From a virus (lineage: Duplodnaviria > Heunggongvirae > Uroviricota > Caudoviricetes), in the IMG/VR virus record IMGVR_UViG_3300042401_002002: DNA of 64,000 nucleotides. The stretch is one strand, 5' to 3'. This document shows positions 35,133 to 58,153 of the stretch, piece by piece. The notes beneath the pieces were generated by a model that was not told the origin of the DNA, searched no databases, and saw only the letters and a list, made by a program, of their open reading frames with translations. A program made the position numbers and the translations under genes. Within the stretch, counting starts at the first letter, position 1. The number at the start of each line of letters is the position of its first letter.

Positions 35133-35675
35133 ATGAAGAAAATACAATTCACCGAAGAAGAACTTTTACTATTATTAAACGATGTAGTAAAAGAACAACA
35201 AAATAAAGTAGAAATTTGGACCAACAATCTTTCGTTAAAAGAAGTTGTTGAAAAAGTTGGTTTTAAAATAGTTAAACAATGAAACTAGAAATAGCAAATT
35301 ATAGTGATAGAAGATTTATTACAAGTAAATCGTTTGAAGTAATAAATAAGGAAATCCCTGTTAAAGAATATTGGTTTAACAACTTAAGAATATATGAAAG
35401 ATGAAATTAAATATCGATAACTTATATACAATTTCTTTTGAAGAAAGTAATGCGTATTTCTTTCTTATACAATTAACCCCAGCAAAGAAACATTTACTAA
35501 ACAATCTAAGGATTTATAAAAGATGAAACTAATAGTTGCTTCAAATCCATATATCTATTTTAATTCAACTGATAGTTTCAGAGAATTATTTAATTTTATT
35601 ACTAACGGAGATAAAATTAAGTTAGATAATTGGATGAATAAAAATAAACCTGATTTTATAGTAATGAAAAGATAA
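35133..35675 (+). other. Locus B of the mini-gene family: four overlapping mini-ORFs (35133..35282, 35279..35404, 35401..35526, 35523..35675)
   Basis: ATGA overlaps; C-termini YWFNNLRIYER and LNNLRIYKR; N-termini MKLEI, MKLNI, MKLIV. Confidence 0.55.
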
Positions 35676-36020: not shown

Positions 36021-36551
36021 ATGGAATTAAAAATCAACAACAAATATATTTTGCTTGAAAAGAATAATGATTATGTTTTCAAAGCATTAATTAATGATGT
36101 TACTAAAACATCTATTCAAATTACTAACTTAGATAACGGAAGTGGTCCTGTTAGAACATTATTAACAGCGTTTCATGAACAACTTGATGTTATTGAGTTT
36201 ATTGATGATAAACAAATAGAATCTCAAATAACAAATTCTATAAATAAATTAAATAAACTAGATAACATAGTAACTAAAGAACTTGTCTCTTTACCGACTA
36301 AGGTAATAAAAGATAATTTAGAAATAGAATCAGCAATGATGAATGTTTTTCTAGAAAATCAAAAACCTTTAGAACCGGATTTTCAAGATGCACTTAATGA
36401 GTTAACTAAAGAATCCGGAAAGGAAATACCAATTCGTTTTATTTCACCTCAAATTAATGTTCGTGAAATTGATAATATTATTTCTGATGAACCAGATTAC
36501 ATTCAACCAACCAAACCTTTAACAAACAATTGGTGTTTTAAAAGCAAGTAA
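36021..36551 (+). CDS. Hypothetical protein
   Basis: 176-aa ORF. Confidence 0.5.
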   Translation: MELKINNKYILLEKNNDYVFKALINDVTKTSIQITNLDNGSGPVRTLLTAFHEQLDVIEFIDDKQIESQITNSINKLNKLDNIVTKELVSLPTKVIKDNLEIESAMMNVFLENQKPLEPDFQDALNELTKESGKEIPIRFISPQINVREIDNIISDEPDYIQPTKPLTNNWCFKSK

Positions 36552-36611
36552 ATAATCTTTAATTTTATGGAAGTTTTATTTAATTTCTACTATTTAAAAT
36601 AAATAACTACA

Positions 36612-37184
36612 ATGTACTACAAACTATCTGATTACGCAAAAAAATTTAACATTACCTACCGTGCAGCGTGGAATCGCTTCAAAGCTGGTAAAATTAAAGA
36701 TGCTTTTGTTGATGATACAAACCATGTTTGTATCCCTGTTCATAAAATGGACTCAATGTCTAAAAACATGGTAATTTATTCCAGAGTTTCTTCTAATGAA
36801 ATGAAAGAAAACTTAGAACGTCAATCTGAAAGATTGACCAACTACGCTATCTCTAACGGTTATACTATCATTAAAGTTGTTAAAGAAGTAGGCTCTGGTC
36901 TGAACGACCACAGACCTAAACTTATGAAAGTTTTAACAGACAACAACTTTGATTTTATTTTAGTTGAAAATAAAGATAGATTAACCCGTTTCGGGTTTAA
37001 TTATCTTGAAACTCTTTTAAAAACTCAAAACAAACAAATTATCGTTGTTAACAATACAAATGATGATAAAACAGATATCATTAATGATTTAGTTTCTATT
37101 ATCTACTCATTCTCTGCCCGTATCTACGGGTTAAGAAGAGCTAAAAACAAACAAAAAGAAATACTTAATATTATAAATAATTAA
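36612..37184 (+). CDS. tnpA: IS607-type TnpA: MerR-like HTH followed by a serine-recombinase catalytic domain
   Basis: N-terminal HTH (YKLSDYAKKFNITYRAAWNRF) then VIYSRVSSNEMKENLERQ with the catalytic Ser. Confidence 0.8.
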   Translation: MYYKLSDYAKKFNITYRAAWNRFKAGKIKDAFVDDTNHVCIPVHKMDSMSKNMVIYSRVSSNEMKENLERQSERLTNYAISNGYTIIKVVKEVGSGLNDHRPKLMKVLTDNNFDFILVENKDRLTRFGFNYLETLLKTQNKQIIVVNNTNDDKTDIINDLVSIIYSFSARIYGLRRAKNKQKEILNIINN

Positions 37185-37191
37185 TTCTTTA

Positions 37192-38496
37192 ATGTACGTT
37201 ACTGAAAAACATATAATCAACAAATTACATCGCTTCTACGAAGAGATTGATTCTCTGTGTTTTAAAAGTAAAAACTTGTATAATAAAGCTCTTTATACTG
37301 TAAGACAAGAATTTATTAATACTTCTAAATTAAAAGAACAAGGCATGGTTGACCATGCTAATTATTTTAATTATTATGATATTAATAGACAATTCATTGA
37401 CAGTAAAGATGTTGATTATTATAATTTACCTGTTAAAATTAGTAATCAAACCCTTATGTTGGTTGATAAGAACTTTAAATCTTTCTTTGCTTTATGTAAA
37501 AAGTACAAAAGCAACAAAAATAATTTAACAGGTAGACCAAAGTTACCTAACTACTTGCACAAAACCAAGGGTCGTTACGTAGTAACGTATGAACTTGGTG
37601 CAATATCTAGCAAGTTTTTAAAACAAAATGTAATTAAACTAAGTGGGACTAACATTGAAGTACCCGTCATTAACAAACACAACGGTGTTTTAAAAATGGT
37701 ACGATTAGTACCCATGTCAAATAAAAAATATAAAATTGAAGTTGTTTATGATGTAGAAGAAAAGAACATGAATTTAAATAAAGACAATATAATAAGTATT
37801 GATTACGGAGTTAATAATTTAATGACTATAACATCAAATGTAGAAGGCTTTCAGCCTCGTATAATTAAAGGTGGTCATGTTAAATCAATAAATCAGTTTT
37901 ATAATAAAGTCAAAAGTGAGTTGCAGTCGCAACTACCAAACCATTCTAGTTTGAAAGACAAAGAAGGTAAACCTCAAATCTTACAGAACTCTAATAAGAT
38001 TAACACTTTAACACATAAGCGTAACTGTAAGATTGAACATGAGTTTCATGAGTACACAAACAAAATATTGCAACTGTGTTTACAGTATAATATTGGTACA
38101 ATAGTTATAGGTTGTAACAAGGGTTGGAAACAGGGAACAAATATGTCAAAGAAAGTTAACCAAAACTTTGTTTCGATACCTTACACAAAACTGACACATC
38201 AGTTAAAGTACAAAAGTGAGTTGATAGGTAATGTTGTTGTGGAACAAGAGGAAAGTTACACATCAAAGGCAAGCTTTGTTGATGATGACTTGATACCCAC
38301 CTACAATAAAAACCAAGCTAAGAGTTACAGTTTCAGTGGAAACCGTAAGCTAAGAGGTTTATACGTTACAAAATTAGGTATCAAAGTTAACTCAGATGTA
38401 AACGGTAGTTATAATATACTGAGAAAGTATATGTTAAGTATCGGTAGGATATTAGACAGCAGTCGCTGTAAATTAGTACCGATAATAATAGATTAA
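37192..38496 (+). CDS. tnpB: TnpB (RuvC-like RNA-guided nuclease family); the zinc-finger Cys pairs appear to be absent
   Basis: RuvC-I SIDYGVNNL, RuvC-II EESYTSKASFVDD and RuvC-III DVNGSYNILRKY are present, but there is no CxxC..CxxC between II and III. Confidence 0.8.
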   Translation: MYVTEKHIINKLHRFYEEIDSLCFKSKNLYNKALYTVRQEFINTSKLKEQGMVDHANYFNYYDINRQFIDSKDVDYYNLPVKISNQTLMLVDKNFKSFFALCKKYKSNKNNLTGRPKLPNYLHKTKGRYVVTYELGAISSKFLKQNVIKLSGTNIEVPVINKHNGVLKMVRLVPMSNKKYKIEVVYDVEEKNMNLNKDNIISIDYGVNNLMTITSNVEGFQPRIIKGGHVKSINQFYNKVKSELQSQLPNHSSLKDKEGKPQILQNSNKINTLTHKRNCKIEHEFHEYTNKILQLCLQYNIGTIVIGCNKGWKQGTNMSKKVNQNFVSIPYTKLTHQLKYKSELIGNVVVEQEESYTSKASFVDDDLIPTYNKNQAKSYSFSGNRKLRGLYVTKLGIKVNSDVNGSYNILRKYMLSIGRILDSSRCKLVPIIID

Positions 38497-38619
38497 ACGC
38501 AAGGGCGGATTGTTCCAAACGGGACATGAAACAGATAGAGGGTTAGCAGTTAACCCAGTGTGAGTTCAAAGTCCACGAAAAGAGAGTAATGGTATTATAT
38601 ACCATGAAATTTTGAACTG
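38495..38619 (+). ncRNA. Putative TnpB omega/reRNA scaffold derived from the IS right end
   Basis: 125-bp segment starting at the tnpB stop; repeated inverted at 42134..42258 with about 92% identity, and homology ends sharply at ...gaaattttgaactg. Confidence 0.45.
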
Positions 38620-38777
38620 TAGTAATAATAGTTGTAATACATTCATGTTATTCGTTTATTGATGAAAAGATAAACGGAAAAACTATAGAATCAAAAATGA
38701 TAGTTAAACCGGATTATAGGTTAGAAACAAACGGTAAAAATATTGATACAATTTATATTTACAAATTTGAATAGTTT

Positions 38778-39380
38778 ATGAAAGAATTTAAAAATATCCA
38801 AGAAAAATATACATCAATGTATTCTGTACCACAAAACATTAATTACAAAATTATATGTTTTGAATACTTAATCAAATTATATATTGATTGGTACAATGAT
38901 GTTAATAGTTCAAATATCGATTATACACAACATTTTAATAAACTAGCACTTAATAAGTTATTATTCTTTACCTCAGCTGTAGGTACAAATAGAAATAATG
39001 ATAACAACGGTTTATTAGATATATTTGATAATTTTTATGCAGCACCATTTGGACATCTGGAGGATGATGTTAATAGTAACTTACGGTTAATTAAATGTAT
39101 TAAGTTTGAATACAATAGTATAAGAAAATTTAACCAACCCAATACATTATATTTTGATAAGATTTCACCAGAAATAAAACAAAGGTTAACAGATGCTGTT
39201 CAATTATTAAGAAAACAAAATGAAACATTAGTATTATATAAACCTTACGAGTTATATGAACTTTCACATGAATATTATTTCTGGAAGTCAACATATAAAT
39301 TTGCTCAATCAATTGGTATGTCTTATTTAGCTATCTCAACAAGTTTAATTAAAACAGAAGAAAAGTTTTTTAGTAAATAA
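38778..39380 (+). CDS. Hypothetical protein
   Basis: 200-aa ORF. Confidence 0.5.
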   Translation: MKEFKNIQEKYTSMYSVPQNINYKIICFEYLIKLYIDWYNDVNSSNIDYTQHFNKLALNKLLFFTSAVGTNRNNDNNGLLDIFDNFYAAPFGHLEDDVNSNLRLIKCIKFEYNSIRKFNQPNTLYFDKISPEIKQRLTDAVQLLRKQNETLVLYKPYELYELSHEYYFWKSTYKFAQSIGMSYLAISTSLIKTEEKFFSK

Positions 39381-39383: not shown

Positions 39384-39512
39384 ATGAAACTTAAGATAAT
39401 AATTACAGGTTTTTATAATGCTAAATCTAAATTTCAACTAACCAAATTTGTAGGTTATTTTGGTATTGGAAACACATGGTCAAATAATTTAAGAATTTAC
39501 TCAAGATATTAG
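39384..39512 (+). CDS. Solo mini-gene family member (locus C)
   Basis: MKLKIIITG...NTWSNNLRIYSRY. Confidence 0.45.
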   Translation: MKLKIIITGFYNAKSKFQLTKFVGYFGIGNTWSNNLRIYSRY

Positions 39513-40120: not shown

Positions 40121-40576
40121 ATGAAAAATATGCAAGAAGAATTAATGGACCTTTTCTTTAAATTAAAAGAATTGAACCCAAACATTAAATTAACAGGTAG
40201 TTTAGCCTTAAACTTACAAAATGTTAAAACCAGAACGGAACCAAACGACTTAGATGTTTATTTACCACTTGGTGAAGAACTAAACATGTTAGAAGGATTT
40301 GAAGAAACTGAACAAGAAGATTATCCTGAAGAAGACTATAATTTGTTTCAGTATTCTAACAACAAAATAAAAATAGATGTATTTCAACCAACTAACAAAT
40401 TGGAATACGGTATCAGTAAAATCATATCTTACAAAGATGTAAAAATTAATGTTATAAAAACACCTGTTATTCTAAGACATAAATTTAATCACGCATTCTC
40501 TATTAACAGCACAACAAATGTTTGTTTCAAACAAACGCAAGACCTAGGTTATATCTTTACGAATTTATGGACTTAA
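40121..40576 (+). CDS. Minimal nucleotidyltransferase-fold (Pol-beta superfamily, MNT-like) protein
   Basis: LTGSLALNLQNVKTRTEPNDLDVYL matches hG[GS]x9-13D[LI]D. Confidence 0.5.
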   Translation: MKNMQEELMDLFFKLKELNPNIKLTGSLALNLQNVKTRTEPNDLDVYLPLGEELNMLEGFEETEQEDYPEEDYNLFQYSNNKIKIDVFQPTNKLEYGISKIISYKDVKINVIKTPVILRHKFNHAFSINSTTNVCFKQTQDLGYIFTNLWT

Positions 40577-40899
40577 TAGACAAAATTAAACTAGAAAAAA
40601 GTTTCAAAATCACAATTGATAATGAAACTTATAAATGTATCATTAAAACTGGAACCATTTATTATTTTGTTGATATCTCAATAATAAAACAATGTAACTT
40701 GTTTGGTTTTAAATTTACTTATTCAAAATTTATGGGATATGTTTGTAGTGATATGGAATTCCCAATACCTTTAACTAATACTGACCAAGACTGGATAAAC
40801 ATTAATAAAGCAATAGAAATAGTCAAAAAAGGTTTAAGCAAATTTGTAAGTAAAAAATATAAACACTTAGAACATATTGTGGTTAAAGACTCGTTATAA
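40567..40899 (+). CDS. Hypothetical protein (start taken at the ATG overlapping the upstream stop; track ORF 40522)
   Basis: MDLIDKIK... ORF. Confidence 0.4.
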   Translation: MDLIDKIKLEKSFKITIDNETYKCIIKTGTIYYFVDISIIKQCNLFGFKFTYSKFMGYVCSDMEFPIPLTNTDQDWININKAIEIVKKGLSKFVSKKYKHLEHIVVKDSL

Positions 40900-40901: not shown

Positions 40902-42102
40902 ATGAAATTAAATATAAACAACGTAAGTTATTTAGAGTTTAATATAACAAATGGTATTGATGTTGTATCAGGTAGTTATAAAGGTGTTTTTAATACAAAT
41001 TATTGGTTAAACAATTTAATAATTTATGAAAGATGAAACTTACAATCAGTTCTTTTAGTAAACAGAAAATAATAAATTCATATATTTATCTTTCTTTACG
41101 AGGATATAGTGAAAAAATAGGACCACATTGGTATAATGAAATTTTAATTTACAAAAGATGAAATTAGAAATATTCAAAGGTCCTGGTCTAACTGGTGTTA
41201 GTCAATTTAAAAATACGTTTATTTATGATTTAATAACAGAAGGAATTAAAATTGATACATCAATTTGGATTAATGATTTAATAATTTCCATAAGATGAAA
41301 TTAATCATAGATAACAGAGTATTATATCGTCATGGTAAAATTACAGATTCATTCGCTCATGATATTATTACAGGGATTAACGCTGATAAAATAAATACTT
41401 TAGGTTGGTTAAACGAAATAACAATATTCACAAGATGAAATTAAAAATTGACATCCAAACCCGTGAAATTAATTCATTTAATTATAGTAATTTATATGTG
41501 AGTTATTTAAAATATCCGTATCATAAAATAAACTTAAATTGGTTAAATGAAATGACAATATTCAGAAAATGAAACTCATATTATATTATAAAGAATCTGA
41601 TTACAGTTTTAAAGATTCACCACATTTTCAAGCCTTAATTGATTGTAATACAATAACAAGTAATAAAGGTTGGGTCAATTACATTATAACATTTAAAAGA
41701 TGAAACTCACAATATACAATAGAAGTTACGTTGATTTTAATAGAACAGGTTATTATAAAATAATAACAACTGATTATGTAAAAATAGACCACTATGATTA
41801 TTGTAACTATATTTTAATAATGAAGAGATGAAACTAAAAACATTATTTTATCCAGACACCTGGGTTTTTACACAATCTGAGAAATACAGGTTATGTAATT
41901 CAGAACTGGAATATAAAATTAAACGACTAGATGTTTGGACCAATAACATACATATATTTGTAAGATGAAACTTACGGTAGAAACAGATTATGGAAACTTT
42001 GTACCAGGACGACCTGATTATGATTTACTAACAGGTTCATTTGAAAATGAAAAAATATCAATAGAATATTGGTGCAACTTGTTGGTTATTTATACGAGAT
42101 AA
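40902..42102 (+). other. Locus D of the mini-gene family: tandem array of 9 complete mini-ORFs (starts 40902, 41033, 41158, 41295, 41435, 41569, 41700, 41828, 41965), with a 10th truncated at 42107..42151
   Basis: Units of 129-144 nt, eight joined by ATGA overlaps. Conserved N-terminus MKL.I and C-terminus W.N.[IL].I[YF].R with a variable middle. Confidence 0.6.
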
Positions 42103-42133
42103 AAAGATGAAATTAAAAATACACGATAGAGAA

Positions 42134-42258
42134 CAGTTCAAAATTTCATAGTATTTTATACCATTACTCTCTTTTCGTGGACTTTGACCTCACACTGGGT
42201 TAACTGCTAACCCTCTATCTGTTTCATGTTCCCTTTGGAACAATCCACCCTTGCGTTT
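42134..42258 (-). mobile_element. Inverted solo copy of the IS607 right-end / omega-RNA-scaffold sequence, inserted into mini-gene unit 10
   Basis: The reverse complement matches 38495..38619 apart from about 7 substitutions and a 2-3-bp indel near the AT-rich distal end. The mini-gene reading frame breaks exactly at its edge. Confidence 0.6.
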
Positions 42259-42679
42259 GTTTTATGTCACTTAACTTATTTGATTCAACAAGCTACGCTT
42301 GTTGTCTTGTTATATTGTGACGATTCTAAAACACTCTTGCGTTTTACGTTTACGAGAACAAAACCTTCAGGTTTTGATTTGTAAACAACCTAATACCACT
42401 ATGTCAAATAATCAACAACCTTTTGTTGTTGAGCAAACAAAGGTACTAATTTAAAATGATAGAACAAAATAAATTAGTACTTTATTTTAAATAGTATATT
42501 TTAAATAAAACTTCTATAAAATTAAAGATTTATTGGTCGCTTTGACTACACCTCTACTTTAAAGATAGTGGTGCATGTTTCTTAATGTCCAAAGGCGGTA
42601 CTTATTATTTGTCGGTTATTAATGAAAATAATACGTTCATTAAATATAATTGGTTAAATAATATAACAATATATGACAA

Positions 42680-43711
42680 ATGAAATTAAAAATACATAAA
42701 ATAATTTATTATTCATTTACTGAATATCGTATTAGCACTTCACTAATAAAAGGTTTTACTAAATCAAAAGAAACCAAAGATTGGTTAAATTACATAACAG
42801 TTTATAATAGAAGAGAAAATGAAACTTAACATAGATAATAGAATTGAAATATTTAAAAAAACATTACTTTATGATGATATTTTTTTAAACCCAAAAACAA
42901 TTAAAATAGATTTATCAGGTTGGTTTGAAATAACTATATTTATAAGATGAAATTAAAAATTGATTACAAAATAATGGTACACCACAGATTTACTGTAGAA
43001 ATATTTTGTAAATCTAACTGGTTTATTCCTGAATACTGGATTAATAAAATTATTGTTTTTGAAAGATGAAACTTAACACACTACACAAAGAGTATAATTT
43101 TAATGATACAAATATGTATGTATTTCTGGTAACAAGCAAAATAAGAACCGTTACTGCATTGTCATTAAAAACAATTTTTAATAAGTTAATTACTTACGAA
43201 AGATGAAATTAGAAATAACTAAATCAGTACATAACTTCAAGAATACATTTACTCTTGAAATATTGTTAAATAAATTCACAGCACAAATAACTCATTCAGC
43301 CTGGTGCAACACAATAGATGTTTATATAAGGTAAATTTATGAAATTAAAAATTCAAAACACAGATTGGTTTCTTGAATTCACAGGTTATCATCCACTTAT
43401 AACAGGTGGATATACAAAACCACAACCACCAATTTCAAAAAACTGGACCAACAAATTAACATTATTTATACGATGAAACTTATTACAGAAAATAAACAAT
43501 ATAATTTTAATAATACCAGAACAAGTTCATTTCTGATATCCGGTAAAATAAGAACTGTTACAGCATTGTTAATTAAAACAAATATTAATAAGTTAATTAC
43601 TTACGAAAGATGAAACTTAAAATTTGGTACCACAATCACAACTTTAAAAATACAAACGTATATATTTCATTAACCATCGGTTATAGTTGTAAAATAAATC
43701 ATGACAACTGA
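42680..43711 (+). other. Locus E of the mini-gene family: 8 mini-ORFs (42680..42829, 42819..42950, 42947..43069, 43066..43206, 43203..43334, 43339..43476, 43473..43613, 43610..43711)
   Basis: Same MKL.I / W.N.I.I(Y/F).R architecture. Units 15 and 18 are close paralogs (..SKIRTVTAL..KT..NKLITYER). Confidence 0.6.
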
Positions 43712-43789
43712 CTTAATACATTATTTGTTTTTAAAAAAATAATAAATTCGTAACAATAAAAGTATTAAGTTTAAAAACCGTATTTTTCT

Positions 43790-44320
43790 GGAAAAAAAAT
43801 TTTTGAGGACCCGGAATAAATATGCGTTTTGGAAATTGCTGGTGGTATTTTGGTTACAAACGATATTAGTTATTTTTGTTTATTAAAATACATGCCAGCA
43901 TTACGATAAAAACAAATTAGTTGTTTTGTTTTATTGGTTTAGTTTATATCGGGAATATAAAACAATATTGGTTTAGAATTCAAAAAATTCTGGGAAAAAT
44001 TTTTTTGAAGATGGAAGAAGATTATAATAAGAACAGAATTAGTTGGTTTGTTTTATTGGGAATGTACCGGTATTAAAAAAAAAGAATAAATTAGAATATA
44101 AACAATATTTGTTATTTTTGTTTATTAGAATAATAATTATATTTGGAATACCTGTCAGTATTAAGAAAAGAATAAGATTGGTTGGTTTTATTGGAAATAT
44201 AAAAGTTATTCGGTTAGTTAGTTTAGAATTCAAAAATTTCTGGAAAAATTTTTTTGAAGATGAAGGAACAAGGTTGGTTTTGGTTGTTTCCCTGGGAAAT
44301 AAAAAACTAGATATTTTGTA
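43790..44320. repeat. Non-coding repeat region: degenerate direct repeats of about 130-250 bp carrying TTGGTT(T/G)GTTTTATTGG(G/A)AAT iterons and aattcaaaaaWttctggGaaaaatttttttgaagatg hairpins
   Basis: Three or four repeat copies read directly. The track ORFs 44039..44395(-) and 44043..44321(+) lie on the repeats and are considered spurious. Confidence 0.5.
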
Positions 44321-44391
44321 GAAGTGTAGCCCCAGCGACATAAACCCCTGTGTATCAGGGAGTTCCCTACGGGTACGGAGAAGTAGGTATA

Positions 44392-44583
44392 TCAAACCAA
44401 CCCACTATTATTCGCTCTATACCTATAATTGCAATTGTTATACAAGATTACATCATTAAGACTTATATAATCATTATTAATAAGTCTATTATAAAAGTCT
44501 CTATCTATTTGATTCATTTCAGTACCGTAGTTATTAACTATACACTTTGCTTTATATTTAAGGTTATTGAAGATGTTATTCAT
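44392..44583 (-). CDS. Hypothetical small protein
   Basis: 63-aa ORF; competes with the overlapping plus-strand ORF. Confidence 0.3.
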   Translation of the reverse strand: MNNIFNNLKYKAKCIVNNYGTEMNQIDRDFYNRLINNDYISLNDVILYNNCNYRYRANNSGLV

Positions 44584-45960: not shown

Positions 45961-46500
45961 TACAAACCTAAATAACAATCTTTAAACCCAACTTTGTTTT
46001 ATACATTGTTGGGTTTTTTGTATTATAACATTGTTTTTTTTAGTTTAGTTAGTTCTATGACAATCGCTTTGTTCGGTTAACTTTTTTTCAGTCCTCTTAC
46101 TAGCTTGTTAGCGTTCATGCTACATTGTACGCAAATAAAACATTAAAGTTACAGTCTTTAATAACAAAGTTATATTTTATACATTGTTTATAACAATCTT
46201 TTATGACAAACTAAATTAGTTTTGTTGTTTTATACATTGTTTACATTCTATAAAACAAACTTTATTTTAATGAGTTTTAAGCGTACTTATTTAGTTGTTT
46301 AATACTTTGTATTGGTTTGTTATTAAAGTCTCTTAAAACTATCTAAAACCGCATTAAAATACATTGTTTTGATTAAGATTATATACATTGTTTATAACAT
46401 TGTTTTGACTTAACTAAATAAACAATCTTTAATAACAAACTTATTTAGTTTTATACATTGTTTTGACAATCTTTAATAACATTGTTTACTAATATAAATT
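45961..46500. repeat. Left arm of a large inverted repeat. The outer ~165 bp is near-identical to the right arm; the inner part is diverged with TATACATTGTT iterons (about 8 copies)
   Basis: The reverse complement of 48563..49030 aligns. Iterons were counted by eye. Confidence 0.6.
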
Positions 46501-46765
46501 AATCGCTTAAACCTACATAAATCGTACCTAAATCAATAATAGTGAATATATAATGACTATTGAATATTACAATATGTTTAGACACTACTTTATTTTTATT
46601 ATTAATGAAACAACCTTTGTCAATAAGTTGTATATTGGTTAAAGTACTATTATTAGAATAAAGTTTAAATTTATCTAATAAGGTAGTAATTATGTTTTGT
46701 TTGAAAATTGATAGTTCTTTAAGCATAGACAAACAAATTAAATAAGTTGGTTTAATACTAAACAA
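46499..46765 (-). CDS. Hypothetical protein; inverted paralog of 48317..48562
   Basis: ..KFKLYSNNSTLTNIQLIDKGCFINNKNKVVSKH..HYIF aligns with ..RFKKYSNNSNINSIKLIDKGCIINDKNKLVSLH..HYIF. Confidence 0.5.
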   Translation of the reverse strand: MFSIKPTYLICLSMLKELSIFKQNIITTLLDKFKLYSNNSTLTNIQLIDKGCFINNKNKVVSKHIVIFNSHYIFTIIDLGTIYVGLSD

Positions 46766-46855: not shown

Positions 46856-47113
46856 TTAGTTATTCAAAGCAAGTTTTCTAATTTCATCATCAGACAAAGA
46901 AAACATTTTTTCACAACAAAACTCAATATTTTCAAACGTACAAACAACTCTAGCATAATCTTTATTAGCAAGTTGTTTTTTGAAATAATAAAGATAAACA
47001 TTAGGTTTTTTGGTTTCTTGTCGCATATAGCAATCAAAACCAAACAAATTAAGTTGATTTAATTCAGACCATTTAGGAACTGAAACGGTTTTGTTATTTT
47101 GAGTAGTAAACAT
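46856..47113 (-). CDS. Hypothetical protein; near-identical duplicate of 49900..50157
   Basis: 85-aa proteins differ at about 5 positions. Confidence 0.55.
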   Translation of the reverse strand: MFTTQNNKTVSVPKWSELNQLNLFGFDCYMRQETKKPNVYLYYFKKQLANKDYARVVCTFENIEFCCEKMFSLSDDEIRKLALNN

Positions 47114-48316: not shown

Positions 48317-48562
48317 ATGCAAACAAAAGACTATAATCTTATCTTTGATAATAAACTATTGTCAATATTCAAACATAATATATTAACTATTTTATTTGAT
48401 AGATTTAAAAAGTATTCAAATAATAGTAATATTAATTCTATTAAATTAATTGATAAGGGTTGTATTATTAATGATAAAAATAAATTGGTTTCTTTACATA
48501 ATATAATAATCAATGAACATTATATTTTTGTTGTTACTGATATGTCAATAGTAACAATATAA
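48317..48562 (+). CDS. Hypothetical protein; inverted paralog of 46499..46765
   Basis: See 46499..46765. Confidence 0.5.
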   Translation: MQTKDYNLIFDNKLLSIFKHNILTILFDRFKKYSNNSNINSIKLIDKGCIINDKNKLVSLHNIIINEHYIFVVTDMSIVTI

Positions 48563-49899: not shown

Positions 49900-50157
49900 T
49901 TAGTTTCGTAAAGCAAGTTTTCTAATTTCATCATCAGACAAAGAAAACATTTTTTCACAACAAAACTCAATATTTTCAAACGTACAAACAACTCTGCAAT
50001 AATCTTTATTCTCTAGTTGTTTTTTGAAATAATAAAGATAAACATTAGGTTTCTTGGTTTGTTGTCGCATATAGCAATCAAAACCAAACAAATTAAGTTG
50101 ATTTAATTCAGACCATTTAGGAACTGAAACGGTTTTGTTATTTTGAGTAGTAAACAT
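49900..50157 (-). CDS. Hypothetical protein; duplicate of 46856..47113
   Basis: Near-identical paralog. Confidence 0.55.
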   Translation of the reverse strand: MFTTQNNKTVSVPKWSELNQLNLFGFDCYMRQQTKKPNVYLYYFKKQLENKDYCRVVCTFENIEFCCEKMFSLSDDEIRKLALRN

Positions 50158-50197: not shown

Positions 50198-50548
50198 TTA
50201 TTTATTACCTACATAATGAGGTAAAAACACTGTTGAGTTTTCTAAAGTATATAAATCTTTTGTTAAACGTTCAATATCGTTTTTAGCGTTTTTAATTCTG
50301 TTTTGAAGTCTTTTAGCATTAATTTTGTCAATAGATACATTAACACCTTCCATTTCAGAACCAACAAAAACAGATTTTTTGCCACAAGATTTAAATGTTT
50401 TGTTAGATGCAATTTCTAACTCATTATAGGCTTTCAATAATAATTCCTTAACATAATCAATCGCACCTTGATTAGGATTTATTGTTGGGTTATTTTCAAC
50501 CGTTTCAACAGTATCAAATAATGAAGTATAATCGAAATTGTCTAACAT
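50198..50548 (-). CDS. Small early protein, hypothetical
   Basis: 116-aa ORF. Confidence 0.45.
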   Translation of the reverse strand: MLDNFDYTSLFDTVETVENNPTINPNQGAIDYVKELLLKAYNELEIASNKTFKSCGKKSVFVGSEMEGVNVSIDKINAKRLQNRIKNAKNDIERLTKDLYTLENSTVFLPHYVGNK

Positions 50549-50598
50549 AATCTTATTCTTTAAATATACATCTTTATACTCTTAAATTAGTAATAAGG

Positions 50599-50868
50599 TT
50601 ACACATTATAAGTAATATTTTCAAAATTTTTATTGTGCAATAAAAAACCTTTAGTTAGAAATTCAGTTTTATGTAGAATAAAACCTTTAGTTAGTTGTTT
50701 ACATTGCATAGCCGTTTCAATATTGGGGCAAATATCAGCATAGTATAATAACTCATTAGCAGGGTTTAATTCATTGCTACAATATAAAACAACCAAATAA
50801 TAATTTGATTGTATAACGTTATCAATTTGTTGTTTTGATAAGTTATTAAGTATGTTTGTTAATTCCAT
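50599..50868 (-). CDS. Small early protein; paralog of 51439..51681
   Basis: Shared NNLSK.QIDN..L...F....Y......P.NE...Y.D.CPNIETA.QCK. Confidence 0.5.
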   Translation of the reverse strand: MELTNILNNLSKQQIDNVIQSNYYLVVLYCSNELNPANELLYYADICPNIETAMQCKQLTKGFILHKTEFLTKGFLLHNKNFENITYNV

Positions 50869-50872
50869 ATAT

Positions 50873-51172
50873 TTAACTAAGAATTATTAATTTATTCATA
50901 GTTATTTTTCTATCTTTTTCATTTTTGAATGTACTTCTATCAAAATAGAAACTATAATCACCGTAAGAAAATTGTTTGTTATATTCGTTTTTAGTAACAA
51001 ATAAAGAAGCTTTTTCAAACATTAAACGCAACCAATAAGCTGTATTTTGATATTTTAAAATATATGAATCGTATCTATATTGAGTACCATCAGCAGCAGT
51101 AGAAATTGTACCAACTTTGATAGTACAATTTTTTTCTAAATTTTCTATTAATATTTCAACAGGATTTTTCAT
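50873..51172 (-). CDS. Small early protein, hypothetical
   Basis: 99-aa ORF. Confidence 0.45.
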   Translation of the reverse strand: MKNPVEILIENLEKNCTIKVGTISTAADGTQYRYDSYILKYQNTAYWLRLMFEKASLFVTKNEYNKQFSYGDYSFYFDRSTFKNEKDRKITMNKLIILS

Positions 51173-51438
51173 AATCTTATTTGTTTTAGTTGTTATATAG
51201 TCTTATTCGTAAAAACAAGTAATAAGGTTACACTATTAACAACTTATTTTTATTGATATTGGAAAGTTTATATAAAAACAAACTAAATAAGTTAATTTTG
51301 TTGGTATAATACAAAACTTATTTTTAGTTAGTAAGTATTAATCCACCTATAACAACAAAACCAATAAAGCTTATACAACTTATAAATAAAACAATAGCTA
51401 TAACTGTTAATAATAATTTTCTGAATAACATAACAAAC

Positions 51439-51681
51439 TTATTTATTAAGGTTTAAATTATAGTATGTTGTATAATCTTGTTTAGTTAATATATAGCCGT
51501 TGGTTTTTTCTTTACATTGTAAAGCAGTTTCAATATTCGGACAAACATCTAAATAAAACATCATTTCATTATTAGGAGTAAATAAGTTTGTTTGATATAT
51601 ACAACAAAACTCAAATTTTGATAATAGAAAATTATCAATTTGTGCCTTAGATAAGTTATTAATTAGGTTTTGAAATTCCAT
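51439..51681 (-). CDS. Small early protein; paralog of 50599..50868
   Basis: See 50599..50868. Confidence 0.5.
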   Translation of the reverse strand: MEFQNLINNLSKAQIDNFLLSKFEFCCIYQTNLFTPNNEMMFYLDVCPNIETALQCKEKTNGYILTKQDYTTYYNLNLNK

Positions 51682-51763
51682 AGTGTTTAATGAGTTTTAA
51701 GGAACTTAAATTAGTTAATCAATAGAATATACCAATTAACTAATTTAGTTCAATGTTGATATA

Positions 51764-52174
51764 CTAAACAAGTATTTTATACATATAATCAATTAATTCG
51801 GGTATTAACTTACCATTGATTTTATTTACCAAATCTTTGTCGATTATTAACCCTTTTAGTGGGTTTGTTGTATAGTGTGAACCTCCACGTCCAAAAACTT
51901 CAGCCGTTTCTTTAAGTGAATAAATTGTTTTAACAATTTCACAAAACTCATAAAGATTTTCTTCTTTAATTGTTAAGGTATCTCCAAAATGTTTTTTTAA
52001 ACCATTATACAAATCAGTTTCTTTCATTAAAGAATATAAATGATAATGAGTATTTTTGTTACCTATATAACCAAAACCCCAATTGCAATCAAAAGAAGGT
52101 ACAGATAAATAAATATTTTCTTCATTGTTTTTACCTAGTAAAAATTTAGAAGGGTATGAGTTTAATAATTTCAT
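51764..52174 (-). CDS. Hypothetical protein
   Basis: 136-aa ORF. Confidence 0.5.
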   Translation of the reverse strand: MKLLNSYPSKFLLGKNNEENIYLSVPSFDCNWGFGYIGNKNTHYHLYSLMKETDLYNGLKKHFGDTLTIKEENLYEFCEIVKTIYSLKETAEVFGRGGSHYTTNPLKGLIIDKDLVNKINGKLIPELIDYMYKILV

Positions 52175-52205
52175 AGTCTTAATAATTTAGTTGGTTAATT
52201 AATAT

Positions 52206-52240
52206 GTAACCTTATACTCTTAAAATCTTTATAAGGTTAC
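52206..52240 (-). promoter_or_regulatory. Class-B promoter, fully palindromic copy (GTAACCTTATActcttaaaatctttATAAGGTTAC)
   Basis: Motif family; the inverted-repeat halves are evident. Confidence 0.5.
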
Positions 52241-52259
52241 AATATTTAGATAAAACTTT

Positions 52260-52637
52260 TTAGTTATTACTAATTTGCATTAATAAAGCTAAATTCTGAA
52301 TATGTTTTGTAATGGCAAAAACAAAACTATCTAAGTCATTTGTATTGCCTTGAAATGTTTTATTTCTTTCCAAATCCATATATACTAAACTATTTTCAGA
52401 AATAGTATATGAACCAGCACGTTTAGTACCTAACAAACATTTGACTGTATTAATAGTACCATTATTATCAGCATTACTAATAGCCATTTTAACAGTCCTA
52501 AATTGAACTTGTTTATTAAATATTAAAGAAGACAAATTACATTTTAAAGCATTGTCTATTTCAGTAATAAAATCTATTTCAGTTTTCATAATCTTAAAAT
52601 TTAAATTGCTTACAAAGGATAATACGTATCTAAACAA
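52260..52637 (-). CDS. Hypothetical protein
   Basis: 125-aa ORF. Confidence 0.5.
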   Translation of the reverse strand: MFRYVLSFVSNLNFKIMKTEIDFITEIDNALKCNLSSLIFNKQVQFRTVKMAISNADNNGTINTVKCLLGTKRAGSYTISENSLVYMDLERNKTFQGNTNDLDSFVFAITKHIQNLALLMQISNN

Positions 52638-52670
52638 ATTAATGTTTCATTTAGATACGTATTATTTTTA
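52621..52670. terminator. Long hairpin aatacgtatctaaa..tttagatacgtatt with a flanking T-run
   Basis: 14-bp perfect stem. Confidence 0.5.
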
Positions 52671-53046
52671 TATTTTTTCAAATAATCTTTTTAGATTAAT
52701 TAAACTTACAATTTCTTTTGAACCTGTGTTTACATTACACAAAATAACTTCATTTGAGTTATTATTCATATCAGTAAAATTTTTGTAAATACCTTTGTAC
52801 TCAAAAATTTGTCCACTTGTTTTATGCTTATACATAATCTTGTTAGTTTAGTTGTTTAACTTACAGTCTTATACTGAATATGTTTTATTAAGGTTACAGT
52901 AAATCGAATAAACTTTTTAATTATTTTTGTCAAACCAAATAAAATTTTGCAAAAACACAAAATAACATTTATTTCTCTATTAGAGAAATTTTAAAATAAC
53001 CAAATATTATTTTGTGTTTTGGTTGTTTTGCAAAATCTTTATTATT

Positions 53047-53262
53047 CTAATAAACAAAATTAGGATAATTCTTTTTAAGAAATTTGTTTAAACTGTTTTC
53101 AGTCCTAAATCCTTTGTTTGGTTTTTGTCTATCTTGCCAAGCATTTTGAAACTCAAATTCTTTTACAATAGCAATAAAACCACCTTTGAATACTTTGCCA
53201 TTATCAGCGATTAATAATGTATTATCAGTCAATACATTTTCTCTTAATATATAAGTTTGCAT
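53047..53262 (-). CDS. Small early protein, hypothetical
   Basis: 71-aa ORF. Confidence 0.45.
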   Translation of the reverse strand: MQTYILRENVLTDNTLLIADNGKVFKGGFIAIVKEFEFQNAWQDRQKPNKGFRTENSLNKFLKKNYPNFVY

Positions 53263-53488
53263 AATCTTTATTGTTTTGTTGTTGAACTTAGTACCTTATA
53301 CTCTTAAATTAATAATAAGGTTACAAAATAAACAATATATTTTTAAATTATTATTTTAATACGTTTTATCAAATCTAGTCTTAACAAAACAAGTATTATA
53401 TTTTGCTTGTTTAGATTGTTTACTATGTTTTAATAATTTTTGTATATAACTTTTTTCACTTATACAATTTTTTCTTAATGTTTGCATA

Positions 53489-53701
53489 TTAATTCAATGT
53501 TTTAAGAATTTCATAATATTTAGGACTAAAATTGTTTTCACTTAAAAAGAAAAAAAATTTTAGTTTTTGTTTACTCGATAATTTAACAAACAATTCTTTT
53601 GCTTGTTGTTTATTGTCATTGATTATACTATCAATTATATAATCAAAATATTCAGTTATGTTTTGAAAGTCTAAAGACTTAATTAATTTTTGAGATACCA
53701 T
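53489..53701 (-). CDS. Small early protein, hypothetical
   Basis: 70-aa ORF. Confidence 0.45.
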   Translation of the reverse strand: MVSQKLIKSLDFQNITEYFDYIIDSIINDNKQQAKELFVKLSSKQKLKFFFFLSENNFSPKYYEILKTLN

Positions 53702-54291
53702 AATCTTTTTAGTTTAGTTATATGTATTGTAACGTGATTGTGTTAATAAGGTTGTTTAAATCCGTTGGTTTTTTGAAAAATTTTGAAAAATTTAGTTAGT
53801 TTTTTCATTTGTGGGGGTTACAAACCAACAAATCTAGTTTAACTCATTAATAATCAAACAAATAACCTATTTTTATATTTCAATTAACACTATAAAGTTT
53901 TAATCAAACAAAACTAACTAATATTATATACTGTTAATTAAATTTTATCTTAACAATACAAACAACTTAATTTGTTTATATTAGAATTAATATAGTTTTA
54001 TACAATAAACTTACTTTTGTTTTTAATTTAACTCATTAATAATCAATATTTTGCCAAAATAGAAACCTACATTTATAAGGGAACATTAAACAAACAATAC
54101 AAAGTATTAATTTATTTTAATAACTAAACAATTAATTTAGTTATCTATATAAAACCAAACAAACTAATTTTAGTCTTTAATAGATAAAACAAACATAGTT
54201 CTATACTGTACAATGTTTAACATTTCAGAAATAAACAAACTTAATACTTTGTATTGTTTTAAGCATTAAGTATGTTACAAGTGTTTACTAA

Positions 54292-55032
54292 CTACAATCC
54301 ATTAATTAATTCATTTAGTTTATTTAAGTTGTAAGCTACTTTATTAGTTAGTAAATCATTGCTAAATAATATTTGATTATCTTTGTTATTTTCAAACAAA
54401 GGTATTAAACTAATTGTTTGTATTAGTTCTTTTTTTGTTGGTAATTTGTTTACATATATGTTAATTCCTTTTTGTTTTGTATCTGTTAATGTTTTGTCAA
54501 TTGCATCAAAAGTTCCACCATTAAACCCGAAAATATTAATAATATAAATTGAGTTGTAAGGTTCTTTTTTAATAGTTATACCTTCTTTTAAATTGTTTGA
54601 GTATTTTCTTTCAGTACCTACAATTAATTGTGCATTAACATTTAAATTTAATGTATTATCATAATACTCATTAATAACATTAAAGCAAAAACTATATTTA
54701 TCTTTAAACTCATTATTTTGTTTATTATAGAATAATATAGTTTTATCTTTTTTAGTGGCATTAAAGTAGTCTAGTAACAAAGTATAGCCACCTAAATACA
54801 TTAAAGCCTTAATAGAAAACAAAGGGTTAAGATTGTTTTGTTTTGTATAGTTAATTAAACTATTATTTGTTTTAAATTTAGATTCTAAAACGTAGCTAAT
54901 AACTAAATCACTATATTTATTAAAGTTATTAATGTTAGTTATTAACTCATTGAATATAGATTCAATATCTAATGTATTAACAAATGTATTAACATTATTA
55001 ATACCTTTTATTTTTGCTTGTTTGATTGTCAT
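54292..55032 (-). CDS. Hypothetical protein
   Basis: 246-aa ORF. Confidence 0.5.
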   Translation of the reverse strand: MTIKQAKIKGINNVNTFVNTLDIESIFNELITNINNFNKYSDLVISYVLESKFKTNNSLINYTKQNNLNPLFSIKALMYLGGYTLLLDYFNATKKDKTILFYNKQNNEFKDKYSFCFNVINEYYDNTLNLNVNAQLIVGTERKYSNNLKEGITIKKEPYNSIYIINIFGFNGGTFDAIDKTLTDTKQKGINIYVNKLPTKKELIQTISLIPLFENNKDNQILFSNDLLTNKVAYNLNKLNELINGL

Positions 55033-55041
55033 AATTAGCTA

Positions 55042-55443
55042 TTATTTAATTAATCTAATTTTATCACTTACAATAGAAACATCGTATAAATTATTAATGC
55101 TATCAATATGTTTTTTAGCATTATATTTATTTGTTTTTGTAATTACGTATTCTATTGTTTGAATATCACAAATATCTATTTTAGCATTTACTTTTTTGGT
55201 TTTGAATAAACCTTTGTAACCTAATTTATTTAATTGTGTTACTACTTTTTGAGTAGTATAAAACGTTTGTGTTTTATTATGATTAACAAAAGAAATTTGT
55301 ATAATTTGTAAAGTATTCAAACTATTGAAATACTTGTTTGTATCTTTGTTAATTTCTTTTTGTGTTTCATTCCATTCCTTATTGGTTAACGGTTTAAAAC
55401 GGTTACTTAAAATATTAACAAGTGTGTTATTCAAAGTTTTCAT
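55042..55443 (-). CDS. Hypothetical protein
   Basis: 133-aa ORF. Confidence 0.5.
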   Translation of the reverse strand: MKTLNNTLVNILSNRFKPLTNKEWNETQKEINKDTNKYFNSLNTLQIIQISFVNHNKTQTFYTTQKVVTQLNKLGYKGLFKTKKVNAKIDICDIQTIEYVITKTNKYNAKKHIDSINNLYDVSIVSDKIRLIK

Positions 55444-55479
55444 AATCTTAGAAATTTGCTTTATTGTGCAAACTTAATA

Positions 55480-55510
55480 CTTATACTCTTAAAGTTATTA
55501 AAAGGTTACA
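55480..55510 (-). promoter_or_regulatory. Class-B promoter (minus: tgtaaccttttaataacTTTAAGAGTATAAG)
   Basis: Motif family. Confidence 0.5.
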
Positions 55511-55550
55511 TACTATTGAAACTATTTTTAAAATATTTTTTTTGTTTATA

Positions 55551-56018
55551 TTAGTTCCACAAATTACTTACTAAGTGTTTAAGTTCCATTAATGGTGTAA
55601 TTAATAAAAAATTATATGTATTATCATATTCAGTATTATACATTACTTTTAGATAATCTTTGAATATAGGCTCAAATAATTCCATTGTACCTAAACATCT
55701 TGGATTCATATAATCACAATTAATAAAAACGTGTGTATTACTATATTGTTTATTGATTTTATTTAATTCGATATATAGTAATTCCATTGATTTGAACGGT
55801 TTATATTTGTGTATATAAACCGTGTTACCGTTTTCATAGTAATAACTTAAGAGTTCAATTTTTTGTTTTTTACCTAAACCTATTGTAAGTATTTTATTGA
55901 AAATAATATTTTCAATTTTGTTATTATCTAAATATTGATTAAAATATTCAGTTTTTAACATATAGATTTGTTTCGGTTTTATTTCTAAAAACAACATTGA
56001 TTTGAATATTTTTATCAA
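55551..56018 (-). CDS. Hypothetical protein (true start possibly the internal MLKTEYF at 55961; an alternative 47-aa ORF 55948..56091 reads in another frame)
   Basis: ORF track plus downstream promoter position. Confidence 0.4.
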   Translation of the reverse strand: MIKIFKSMLFLEIKPKQIYMLKTEYFNQYLDNNKIENIIFNKILTIGLGKKQKIELLSYYYENGNTVYIHKYKPFKSMELLYIELNKINKQYSNTHVFINCDYMNPRCLGTMELFEPIFKDYLKVMYNTEYDNTYNFLLITPLMELKHLVSNLWN

Positions 56019-56168
56019 TGTTTAGTTTTTCCTTGCAGTATTCGACAAAGTGTTTAACCTCATTGTTTAGAATATCTTTATAGCTTTGCATAATCTTGGT
56101 AGTTTAAATATACAGTCTTTTACGCTTACTTTTTAATTAAGTTTCATAAAAGACTGTAATTTTTTAAA

Positions 56169-56831
56169 TTATTTTAACAATGTACCTTTTTTGGGTTTTT
56201 CTTTTTTGTTTATATATGTTTTTGTTGGTTTAAAGTTTTTTAAGATTATTTCTTCATTAACCTTTGAAGTTAATATAAAATTAATTGTTTCTTTTTGTAG
56301 TGGAGTTAAATCCTTTGTTAGTTGGTTTTTATAATAATCTTTGTTTAAATTCGATTCTAACAAACCCAAAACAGTTATATAGTATTCTGCTAGTATAAAA
56401 CTGTTTTCATCTTTGTAAGTGTTATAATAAACAACTTCATTACCAAATTTAAAACATTCGTGTGTATCTTTGATAAGTTTTTTTACTTTGTCAACTGTTA
56501 ACAATGTAGCATTTTTGGTATTATCTGTTTTATGTGATTCTAATATATAATTTATATAAGTTTCACTAATATGTTTGGGTACTTCATTGTAATTTAAAAT
56601 TTCTAAATCTTTTTTATATAAATTACTATGTGTATGCAACTTTGCTACATTGTCATTATCTGATTTAAACAATGTACTAATGTGATATTCAGTACCTAAA
56701 TTATTACCATTATTAGGTACAATTTTGATAACATAACCAATGCCTGTGGGTATGTATTTACAAGCTACAAAATCATTTAGTTTGATTTTATTTCTTTTGT
56801 TATTCCAAACTGTAAAGTTAATAGTACTCAT
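56169..56831 (-). CDS. Hypothetical protein
   Basis: 220-aa ORF. Confidence 0.5.
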   Translation of the reverse strand: MSTINFTVWNNKRNKIKLNDFVACKYIPTGIGYVIKIVPNNGNNLGTEYHISTLFKSDNDNVAKLHTHSNLYKKDLEILNYNEVPKHISETYINYILESHKTDNTKNATLLTVDKVKKLIKDTHECFKFGNEVVYYNTYKDENSFILAEYYITVLGLLESNLNKDYYKNQLTKDLTPLQKETINFILTSKVNEEIILKNFKPTKTYINKKEKPKKGTLLK

Positions 56832-56904
56832 AATCTTGGTTATTTTAGTTAGTTACTTAATGAATATACGGTTTATACGTTCACTTTTTAAAAAGGTTGT
56901 GTTT

Positions 56905-57384
56905 TTATTTATGTTTTAATACAATTTTATTATGTAGATTATCTACTATAAAATTATTATTTGCATTATCAATTCTAATTGTATATCTATCAAAATCATT
57001 ATAAGATAAACTATATAAACTAAGTTTATATTTAAAGTTTATTTTATATTTTTCTAAGTAATTTTTAATACTATCAAAATGTGTTTGATTTAATCTAATT
57101 GTTATTATGTTATTTTTAATTTCTAAGGTAGAAATTTTAGCAAACAAATTACAACCAAACTTTGTTTTATTGAGTTCACTAAATGTAAAATCAATATTAA
57201 GAGTAATTTGTTCCTTTGCTTGTTTCTTTAAGTATGTTTGATATTTTTTGTTACAAATATCACTTACAAAACAAGTATTATCATATTGTTTTATTATTTC
57301 ATTTTCTGAAATAATTTCAGTATTAAAATCTGTTAAGGTTTTAATCTTACCTTTGTTTGTGGTGGTGTTAACAAACTTTTGCAT
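56905..57384 (-). CDS. Hypothetical protein
   Basis: 159-aa ORF. Confidence 0.5.
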   Translation of the reverse strand: MQKFVNTTTNKGKIKTLTDFNTEIISENEIIKQYDNTCFVSDICNKKYQTYLKKQAKEQITLNIDFTFSELNKTKFGCNLFAKISTLEIKNNIITIRLNQTHFDSIKNYLEKYKINFKYKLSLYSLSYNDFDRYTIRIDNANNNFIVDNLHNKIVLKHK

Positions 57385-58069: not shown

Positions 58070-58153
58070 AGTCTTTATTGTTTATCTTATTAAACTTAAT
58101 ACTTATACTGAATATCTTATTAAAAGGTTGCGTTTATACACCATATTTTAATA

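Follow-up and report, generated by a model that had tools for sequence, protein, structure and literature searches.

The DNA analysed here (the window) is a 64,000-nt stretch of a 308,574-bp viral contig (IMG/VR record IMGVR_UViG_3300042401_002002; Caudoviricetes) that carries a family of paralogous mini-genes, typically encoding about 44 residues, organized in overlapping tandem arrays of which the largest lies at 40902-43711. Its large terminase shares 28–30% identity with the enzymes of T4-like myoviruses infecting Microcystis and Flavobacterium, a relationship that marks the contig as that of a T4-type phage with a very large genome, obtained from a metagenome. When the window was searched for near-identical DNA among 50,697 deposited phage records, neither a match nor a close relative was returned.

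Mini-gene arrays and their units

Units were detected by combining a listing of open reading frames (ORFs) with a scan for the MKL-start motif, after which a family hidden Markov model (HMM) was run over all six frames. ORF listing, motif scan and HMM alike reproduced the mini-genes reported by an earlier, first-pass annotation of this DNA, all on the plus strand and 40–50 residues in size. The HMM recognized 21 intact members, one truncated by a nonsense mutation and one split by a transposon remnant, and two more divergent copies bring the census to 23 clear and 2 divergent units. The arrays themselves are thus real, whereas the previous count of about 26 units at five loci has to be lowered. 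The ORF at 35133-35282 (HMM E 0.08, different character) was not convincing as a member. The intact members are distributed as one at 8870-9001, three in 35279-35675, one at 39384-39512, nine in 40902-42102 and seven in 42680-43613. Adjacent units share a 4-nt ATGA stop/start overlap at 16 of the 18 internal junctions of the window arrays, in agreement with the claim that most neighbours are so linked.

The first small array opens with a divergent or degenerate copy of 53 residues (8712-8873; MKLNV...WLNETTV...; HMM E 0.43) that overlaps, through ATGA, an intact unit of 43 residues (8870-9001; E 1.7e-14), followed by a divergent member of 49 residues (8998-9147; MKIKF...NTIYIYGR) that falls below the HMM threshold and is ATGA-linked on both sides. 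Directly 3′ of this array, again with an ATGA overlap, lies a gene for a DUF6717 protein (9144-9482; E 8e-35). The second array contains two units of 41 residues belonging to an “NNLRIYxR” subtype (35279-35404 and 35401-35526) and ends with a unit of 50 residues that has an insertion in its C-terminal motif (35523-35675). A single intact unit of 42 residues stands at 39384-39512.

The main array is headed by a gene for a 110-residue protein (40567-40899, plus strand), whose position is kept in the related contigs L001, L006, L007 and L008, and begins with a unit of 44 residues (40902-41036). This is followed by units of 42 (41033-41161), 46 (41158-41298; missing from the relative L003), 47 (41295-41438), 45 (41435-41572; termed the w10 type), 44 (41569-41703; missing from L001 and present in two copies in L003), 43 (41700-41831), 46 (41828-41968) and 45 residues (41965-42102), the last of which ends AGA TAA without overlap and served as query for the better of our two structure models. 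Next comes the split unit, with an N-terminal fragment at 42107-42151 (MKLKIHDREQ, then out-of-family residues up to the stop) and a C-terminal fragment at 42555-42683 (...YNWLNNITIYDK) recognized by the HMM. The second half of the array resumes with a unit of 49 residues (42680-42829) that extends five residues beyond the conserved Arg and overlaps its neighbour by 11 nt, and continues with units of 43 (42819-42950), 40 (42947-43069), 46 (43066-43206), 43 (43203-43334; ending AGG TAA, then a 4-nt gap), 45 (43339-43476) and 46 residues (43473-43613). It closes with a copy truncated to 33 residues (43610-43711) by a TGG to TGA change at the conserved Trp codon. The closest paralogues are 43066-43206 and 43473-43613; at 63% protein and about 74% DNA identity their duplication is not very recent, contrary to what had been proposed from their similarity.

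Coding capacity and selection

The annotated frames contain no in-frame stop (0/931 codons), against an average of 0.107 per codon in the five alternative frames (log10 P = -45.5); the chance probability of one 44-codon open frame at this composition is about 0.014. These numbers bear out the suspicion that the frames are open beyond chance, although the 30% GC background on which it had been based is in fact 25% around the arrays. When codon usage was learned from the window's long genes, the annotated frame scored best in 21 of 21 units. Furthermore, conserved residues are specified by diverse synonymous codons: Leu3 is encoded by CTT (45), TTA (39), CTA (14) and CTC (5), so that both leucine codon families are used, and Asn37 by AAT (59) and AAC (37). 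This diversity rules out gene conversion alone as what keeps the ends alike. The terminal Arg44 is retained, once as AGG, even without an overlapping downstream gene.

Orthologous units were compared in four relatives (L001, L003, L006 and L007), metagenomic contigs recovered through protein look-ups, in which they share 63–100% protein identity. The ratio of nonsynonymous to synonymous substitution rates (dN/dS) between window units and these orthologues was 0.31, with no frame-breaking indels. A free accumulation of frameshifts and stops in relatives, named beforehand as the pattern that would speak for a non-coding repeat, was looked for and not seen, orthologues keeping their frame apart from occasional dead copies. 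Across 21 orthogroups, the corresponding polymorphism ratio (pN/pS) was lower at the two ends (0.29 over the 14 N-terminal codons and 0.34 over the 11 C-terminal ones) than in the core (0.52). The core is hence the more variable part, as predicted, but “hypervariable” overstates the case: in most units the core is itself under purifying selection, and pN/pS approaches 1 only in a few. One of these is the unit at 40902-41036, which across five phages shows nearly invariant termini (pN/pS 0.07–0.15) around a core with pN close to pS (0.33 vs 0.33), indicating relaxed or diversifying evolution, with counts too small to say which.

As far as comparison of sequences can establish it, these results show the units to be protein-coding genes under purifying selection. 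The competing view takes the array for a DNA or RNA repeat without coding function (a conserved repeat with a variable spacer) in which the open frames are incidental, and could draw on the about 40–60 nt that recur at each junction with a period of about 135 nt. We reject it on the same comparative grounds and give it practically no chance, given a probability of about 1e-45 for the open frames, the synonymous variety at conserved residues in both leucine codon families, a dN/dS of about 0.3, indels that consist of whole codons or whole units, and no Rfam match in or around the arrays.

Family profile, predicted fold and distribution

Pooled from all loci, the family comprises 169 unique members that share conserved termini, namely M1 K2 L3 x I5 (the MKLxI N-terminus being almost invariant) and W35 x N37 x I/L39 x I/V41 Y/F42 x R44. 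Conservation also extends into the middle (F13 in 86%, S/T16 in 85% and Y19 in 59% of members, together with L21/L22 and I30). The segment previously called a hypervariable core is accordingly a scaffold with variable exposed positions and not a free-form segment: the earlier description of conserved ends holds, whereas a middle differing “almost completely” does not, as F13, S/T16, Y19 and L22 are kept. The typical unit is about 44 residues long, hydrophilic (median grand average of hydropathy, GRAVY, -0.33) and mostly basic (median isoelectric point, pI, 9.5), with net charges ranging from -5 to +8. Cysteine is rare, 65 of 107 peptides having none.

AlphaFold2 models built from 30 and 78 aligned sequences (predicted local distance difference test scores, pLDDT, of 74.6 and 78.3) gave the same topology, in which a strand (residues 4–8) is followed by a helix (17–23), a short helix (33–36) and a second strand (39–43). 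Both strands show alternating conservation (L3 and I5; I39 and I41), a pattern that, set against the predicted secondary structure, would fit a single buried sheet face packed on the helix. With moderate confidence, we propose that the units adopt a beta-alpha-beta miniprotein fold.

To our searches the family is without annotated relatives: it had no match in Pfam, PHROGs, PADLOC or NCBIfam, none among PDB sequences, and fold searches with both models, including the predicted viral structures of BFVD, were empty. An exhaustive HMM search of 1.84 billion (1.84e9) cluster representatives recovered 67 proteins, every one aligned over the entire profile. All but two of these are 41–54 residues long, and the two 67-residue proteins consist of a unit at residues 23–67 behind an upstream start. 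Word-indexed protein searches with two family alignments returned the same phage clade only. Arrays were also sought by DNA, using a degenerate junction pattern and then the family HMM on the matching loci, as most single pattern matches are due to chance. This revealed further arrays in viral and metagenome contigs (L009, L012, L015, L017, L018, L054, L059, L090, L093, L097 and L098). By HMM, no member was present in six of the eleven viral-contig stretches with a pattern match (L010, L011, L013, L014, L016 and L019), and none in one genome each from 185,579 bacterial and archaeal species (pattern loci L020-L040 checked). As judged from these searches, members occur only in a single clade of uncultivated phages. 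They make up a new protein family, whose scale and layout, with more than 20 coupled 44-codon paralogues, are unusual; a literature search for phage families of tandem mini-genes similar to this one gave no relevant result.

Turnover of units among related phages

Orthologous units follow one another in the same order in the window and in its relatives, but whole units are present or absent, with frame and ATGA overlaps kept. In L003, for instance, the 41435 and 41569 types occur again as an additional, duplicated pair, every relative holds units absent from the window, and several of the apparent gaps in the relatives' arrays contain still more divergent members. Dead copies accompany this turnover, in the form of the nonsense-truncated unit at 43610-43711 (intact in L003 at 11030-11161), an L003 unit that has lost its start codon (the orthologue of 43339-43476) and the window unit disrupted by an insertion sequence (IS). 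A mosaic was found in L006 (5831-5971), whose body is of the 41435 (w10) type and 91% identical to the L007 copy, while its first 17 nt and last ~33 nt are those of an L001 9617-type unit. The neighbouring L006 unit (5706-5834) in turn bears a w10-type C-terminus. Together, the mosaic and its neighbour indicate that the conserved terminal coding segments are used as exchange points. The junction, made up of the C-terminal codons of one unit and the first codons of the next, may double as a homology patch for the phage recombination system, which would let units behave as shufflable cassettes.

A precedent exists in the hyperplastic regions of T4-type phages, where ORFans are shuffled through PeSL motifs (Arbiol et al. 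2010, PMC2839356; Comeau et al. 2014, PMC4122927). As there, short, dispensable genes without assigned function cluster in a plastic region of a T4-like phage, close relatives differ by insertion, deletion or replacement of single genes, and a short recurring sequence is the point of exchange. The recurring sequence in our arrays is, however, coding, spanning the final ~12 codons of a unit and the opening ~5 of its successor, instead of an intergenic promoter and terminator; the ATGA overlaps leave no intergenic space and there is no stem-loop. Moreover, the genes are paralogues of one family, unlike the unrelated ORFans of PeSL cassettes. Exchange end points thus fall within a conserved motif, whereas the intergenic sigma-70-like promoter and stem-loop terminator that define PeSL are missing. 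The arrays work like PeSL shuffling without implied membership among PeSL cassettes, and they fit a known kind, the plastic accessory regions of T4-type phages that are shuffled via short conserved sequences.

Expression signals

Translational coupling of the arrays, as first suggested for the window, finds support across the family, with 93 of 107 unique units ending in ATGA. No Shine-Dalgarno motif was detected in any of the 49 long genes of the window. Before each ATG of the arrays, A is conserved at -3 and -1, where it is supplied by the terminal AGA codon of the preceding unit. A Bacteroidota-type promoter motif (TTG, 18–20 nt, TAnnTTTG) was observed 17 times against 6.3 expected. Its sites are intergenic, one example (8206-8236) preceding the operon to which the first array belongs. 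Inside the arrays, neither this motif nor a terminator-like hairpin was found, the IS remnant excepted. Sigma-70 promoter-like matches were not enriched (63 vs 55 expected), and scans for sigma-70 and T4 late promoters (TATAAATA) were uninformative in DNA this rich in AT. Many minus-strand genes share the start context AAAGAYTATG (e.g., 50198-63231). This context, the missing Shine-Dalgarno motifs and the excess of TTG-N18-20-TAnnTTTG hint at a Bacteroidota host. Initiation independent of Shine-Dalgarno sequences is established for Bacteroidota. We suggest that each array would be transcribed as one long message, on which ribosomes of a host with Shine-Dalgarno-independent initiation would terminate and re-initiate at each ATGA.

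An ORF of different character lies within the main array of L001 (9445-9633). It encodes a strongly hydrophobic product of 62 residues (a likely membrane peptide), begins at an ATGA link with the preceding unit and shares 17 nt with the following one, so unrelated small genes can evidently enter the string.

A Panacea-like gene beside the arrays

Directly 5′ of the unit at 39384 lies a plus-strand gene for a 200-residue protein (38778-39380) that is a distant, sub-threshold relative of SocA/Panacea proteins. Its family has two paralogues per phage, with one to several mini-genes directly after each (L001 5197-5799 and 6785-7384; L003 6640-7242; L006 2012-2614 and 4087-4686), and in L001, L003 and L006 these paralogues head arrays of the “LRIYxR” subtype, which they join by an ATGA overlap. 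Three of the five paralogues matched SocA_Panacea (PF13274; 18.4–23.1 bits against a cut-off of 25.7, E 1.5e-4 to 4e-3) over positions 1–112 of 113, and the same three matched SocA_antitoxin (NF047745; E 3e-5 to 3e-4), below its 190-bit cut-off. The 200-residue paralogues also matched phrog_1281 (8e-10). The window copy itself had no Panacea match in either PF13274 or NF047745 and is 55% identical to the matching L001 protein at 5197-5799. A homologue search with the 200-residue protein returned close relatives only, none of them Pfam-labelled, and its matches to tissue factor in a PDB profile search were dismissed as spurious.

Candidate functions of the mini-protein family

Narrow distribution, rapid turnover, dispensable copies, purifying selection on the survivors and a shared scaffold with a variable surface together amount to the behaviour of an accessory repertoire. 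We therefore favour, with about an even chance of being right, the reading that these small soluble proteins form a lineage-specific accessory family, translationally coupled and evolving through the shuffling of cassettes, whose members are, by analogy, likely host-interaction effectors. The N- and C-terminal strands would pair and pack on the short helix to form the beta-alpha-beta mini-fold, leaving exposed positions free to vary between paralogues. By analogy with the many small inhibitors made by phages and with the polymorphic internal-protein loci of T-even phages, which have only a short targeting sequence in common and counteract restriction (PMC3012670), the family is likely to supply small proteins that bind or inhibit host proteins or defences. 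It would be a repertoire that is dispensable and turns over fast, in which different paralogues would address different targets.

Several points weigh against this accessory-effector reading. The fold model is of only moderate confidence and has no structural neighbour. Core pN/pS reaches 1 or more in some orthogroups, where counts are too small to separate diversifying selection from relaxed constraint. An RNA-level reason to keep the terminal AGA may come from the conserved A at -3 and -1, and identity at paralogue junctions is only 60–77%, low for classical homologous recombination. Finally, the effector role is drawn from analogy with small phage inhibitors and from the accessory, fast-turnover behaviour.

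A bolder version, which we regard as possible though on balance unlikely, holds that the phage maintains a library on a 44-residue beta-alpha-beta scaffold not seen before, in which each unit would be a dedicated binder or inhibitor for a different host protein or defence system, the conserved ends would serve both as structural core and as built-in recombination sites through which the variable cores could be swapped, duplicated and passed between phages, and the Panacea-like gene heading some arrays might encode a handler. If true, the arrays would amount to an effector repertoire that shuffles itself, the coding equivalent of PeSL cassettes.

The location of the 200-residue gene raises the question of whether the mini-proteins are its partners, that is, small toxins or host-shutoff effectors that it neutralises, chaperones or delivers to a protease, in a multi-toxin version of PanA-PanT. 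Such a relationship is possible, since Panacea antitoxins neutralise by binding many unrelated toxins, often small peptides, and PanA-PanT modules, also present in phages, likewise place the Panacea gene immediately 5′ of, and coupled to, small genes without assigned function (Kurata et al. 2022, PMC8832971). The immediate proximity to unit 39384, the ATGA-overlapping position at the head of “LRIYxR” arrays in three relatives and the fact that three paralogues, to which the window copy is 55% identical, match both Panacea models agree with it. Every one of these domain matches nevertheless lies below its curated cut-off, with none for the window copy; most units are not beside a Panacea-like gene, the two largest arrays being headed by the unrelated 110-residue gene; PanAT systems are two-gene pairs and not arrays of 1 to 20 units behind one gene; and the described small PanT toxins have predicted transmembrane helices, which the hydrophilic units lack. 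We accordingly consider a toxin-antitoxin partnership unlikely. Only a small probability also attaches to the notion that the conserved termini are sorting or processing signals, with the peptides packaged in the capsid and injected with the DNA like the internal proteins of T-even phages, even though the phage is T4-like, the MKLxI N-terminus is almost invariant and the family is diverse, basic and individually dispensable. The conserved positions are spread along the peptide and fit a folded core better than a detachable signal, and the N-terminus is followed by no evident L/I-x-E site, the cleavage rule of the T4 gp21 protease. Internal proteins are described in PMC3012670 as a diverse anti-restriction set sharing only a capsid-targeting sequence (citing Repoila et al. 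1994), with an anti-defence role. Our family is like this set in consisting of small, basic, highly diverse proteins of T4-type phages that have a short conserved N-terminus and a content varying by phage (PMC3012670). It differs in having at least 20 copies and conservation of the whole fold; internal proteins, at about 1–4 per locus, are larger, and all they have in common is the N-terminal signal.

Co-assembly of the paralogues through their conserved terminal beta-strands into a heteromeric sheet, ring or fibre, for which the array would be the parts list, seems to us decidedly improbable. It would account for the conservation of both terminal strands, the monomer model presents a two-stranded sheet with two free edges, and ATGA coupling would favour near-equal synthesis of units. 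Unit content, however, varies freely among close relatives and each genome contains single dead units, which is hard to reconcile with a fixed multi-subunit structure; in addition, the strand face away from the helix is variable and polar. Least credible among the protein-level readings is that the units are precursors of ribosomally synthesized and post-translationally modified peptides (RiPPs), an idea raised in the first-pass annotation and suggested by the arrayed layout of many small paralogous genes whose products start with a conserved N-terminus. The prochlorosins are a multi-copy RiPP precursor family of this kind, with many paralogous short genes that are conserved in one part and variable in another. 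In contrast to these, both ends of the present units are conserved (the C-terminus as much as the N-terminus, and not a leader only), scaffold residues occupy the middle, the model predicts a folded domain, and there is no Cys/Ser/Thr-rich core, the majority of peptides having no Cys at all (65/107). Furthermore, Pfam, PHROGs and NCBIfam scans of neighbouring genes turned up neither a modifying enzyme (lanthipeptide synthetase, cyclodehydratase or radical SAM enzyme) nor a protease or exporter. We judge the RiPP proposal very improbable and do not retain it. A further parallel is offered by the host-takeover module of Bacillus phage SPO1 (gp37-gp60), a set of very small early genes in operon-like, often overlapping order. 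The arrays resemble this module in their strings of very small, often overlapping genes, those of SPO1 acting on host functions, and differ from it in that the SPO1 genes are not mutual paralogues.

Small phage proteins are one of the main sources of host-machinery inhibitors and anti-defence factors, and are usually singletons unsuited to comparison. Here, one scaffold is available in more than 160 natural variants with clear conserved and variable positions and ready sets of orthologues, each short enough for chemical synthesis. If units bind host targets, they would provide a miniprotein scaffold of natural origin and phage effectors of a new class, from phages with apparently Bacteroidota-like hosts. 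The arrays also illustrate that coding sequence itself can supply homology for gene-by-gene shuffling in T4-type phages, and suggest that long gene strings can be expressed by stop/start coupling without Shine-Dalgarno sites.

An IS607 element and its miniature derivative

A complete plus-strand IS607-family element with left and right ends lies at 36532-38620, comprising a serine-recombinase TnpA (36612-37184) and TnpB (37192-38496). A gene-less derivative of ~420 bp (42135-42555), inverted relative to the full element, is inserted in a unit of the main array and keeps both ends: its right-end arm (42133-42265) is 92% complementary to 38488-38620 and its left-end arm (42475-42552) 82% complementary to 36532-36609. 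This derivative looks like a non-autonomous copy, similar to a miniature inverted-repeat transposable element, that transposed within the phage. The split of one unit by an IS607-derived insertion, noted previously, is confirmed by its two fragments (42107-42151 and 42555-42683) and by an uninterrupted 53-residue orthologue in L003 (9843-10004). The main array had also been placed between inverted copies of an IS607 right end; two inverted copies are present, but the second carries both ends and only the first half of the array, its first nine units, is enclosed by them. The derivative retains the right-end segment beside the tnpB 3′ end, a region from which TnpB guide RNAs normally arise.

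Other features of the window

Just past the main array, non-coding DNA at 43763-44255 holds three direct-repeat families with spacings of 242–250 bp and 452 bp. The GC-richer patch that follows (44320-44400) gave no tRNA or Rfam match and folds no better than shuffled sequences (z = -1.45). Upstream in the window, 19247-22039 encodes a 930-residue protein with many helix-turn-helix repeats and matches to HNH and homing endonuclease-like domains, of which a 703-residue relative (22% identical) is encoded at 99-2210 of L015, a more distant phage contig, just 5′ of its mini-gene array. The adjacent 22094-25045 encodes a 983-residue protein with an internal NUDIX domain (residues ~690–800), where residues 696–804 also weakly match a PHROG annotated as portal protein. 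Among the minus-strand genes of about 100 residues at 50–63 kb, BLASTP revealed no second paralogue family. Local gene duplications are also seen: genes for 85-residue proteins at 46856-47113 and 49900-50157 are 95% identical, 48317-48562 (plus strand) and 46499-46726 (minus strand) are inverted duplicates with 58% identity, and 51439-51681 and 50599-50868 are duplicates with 50% identity.

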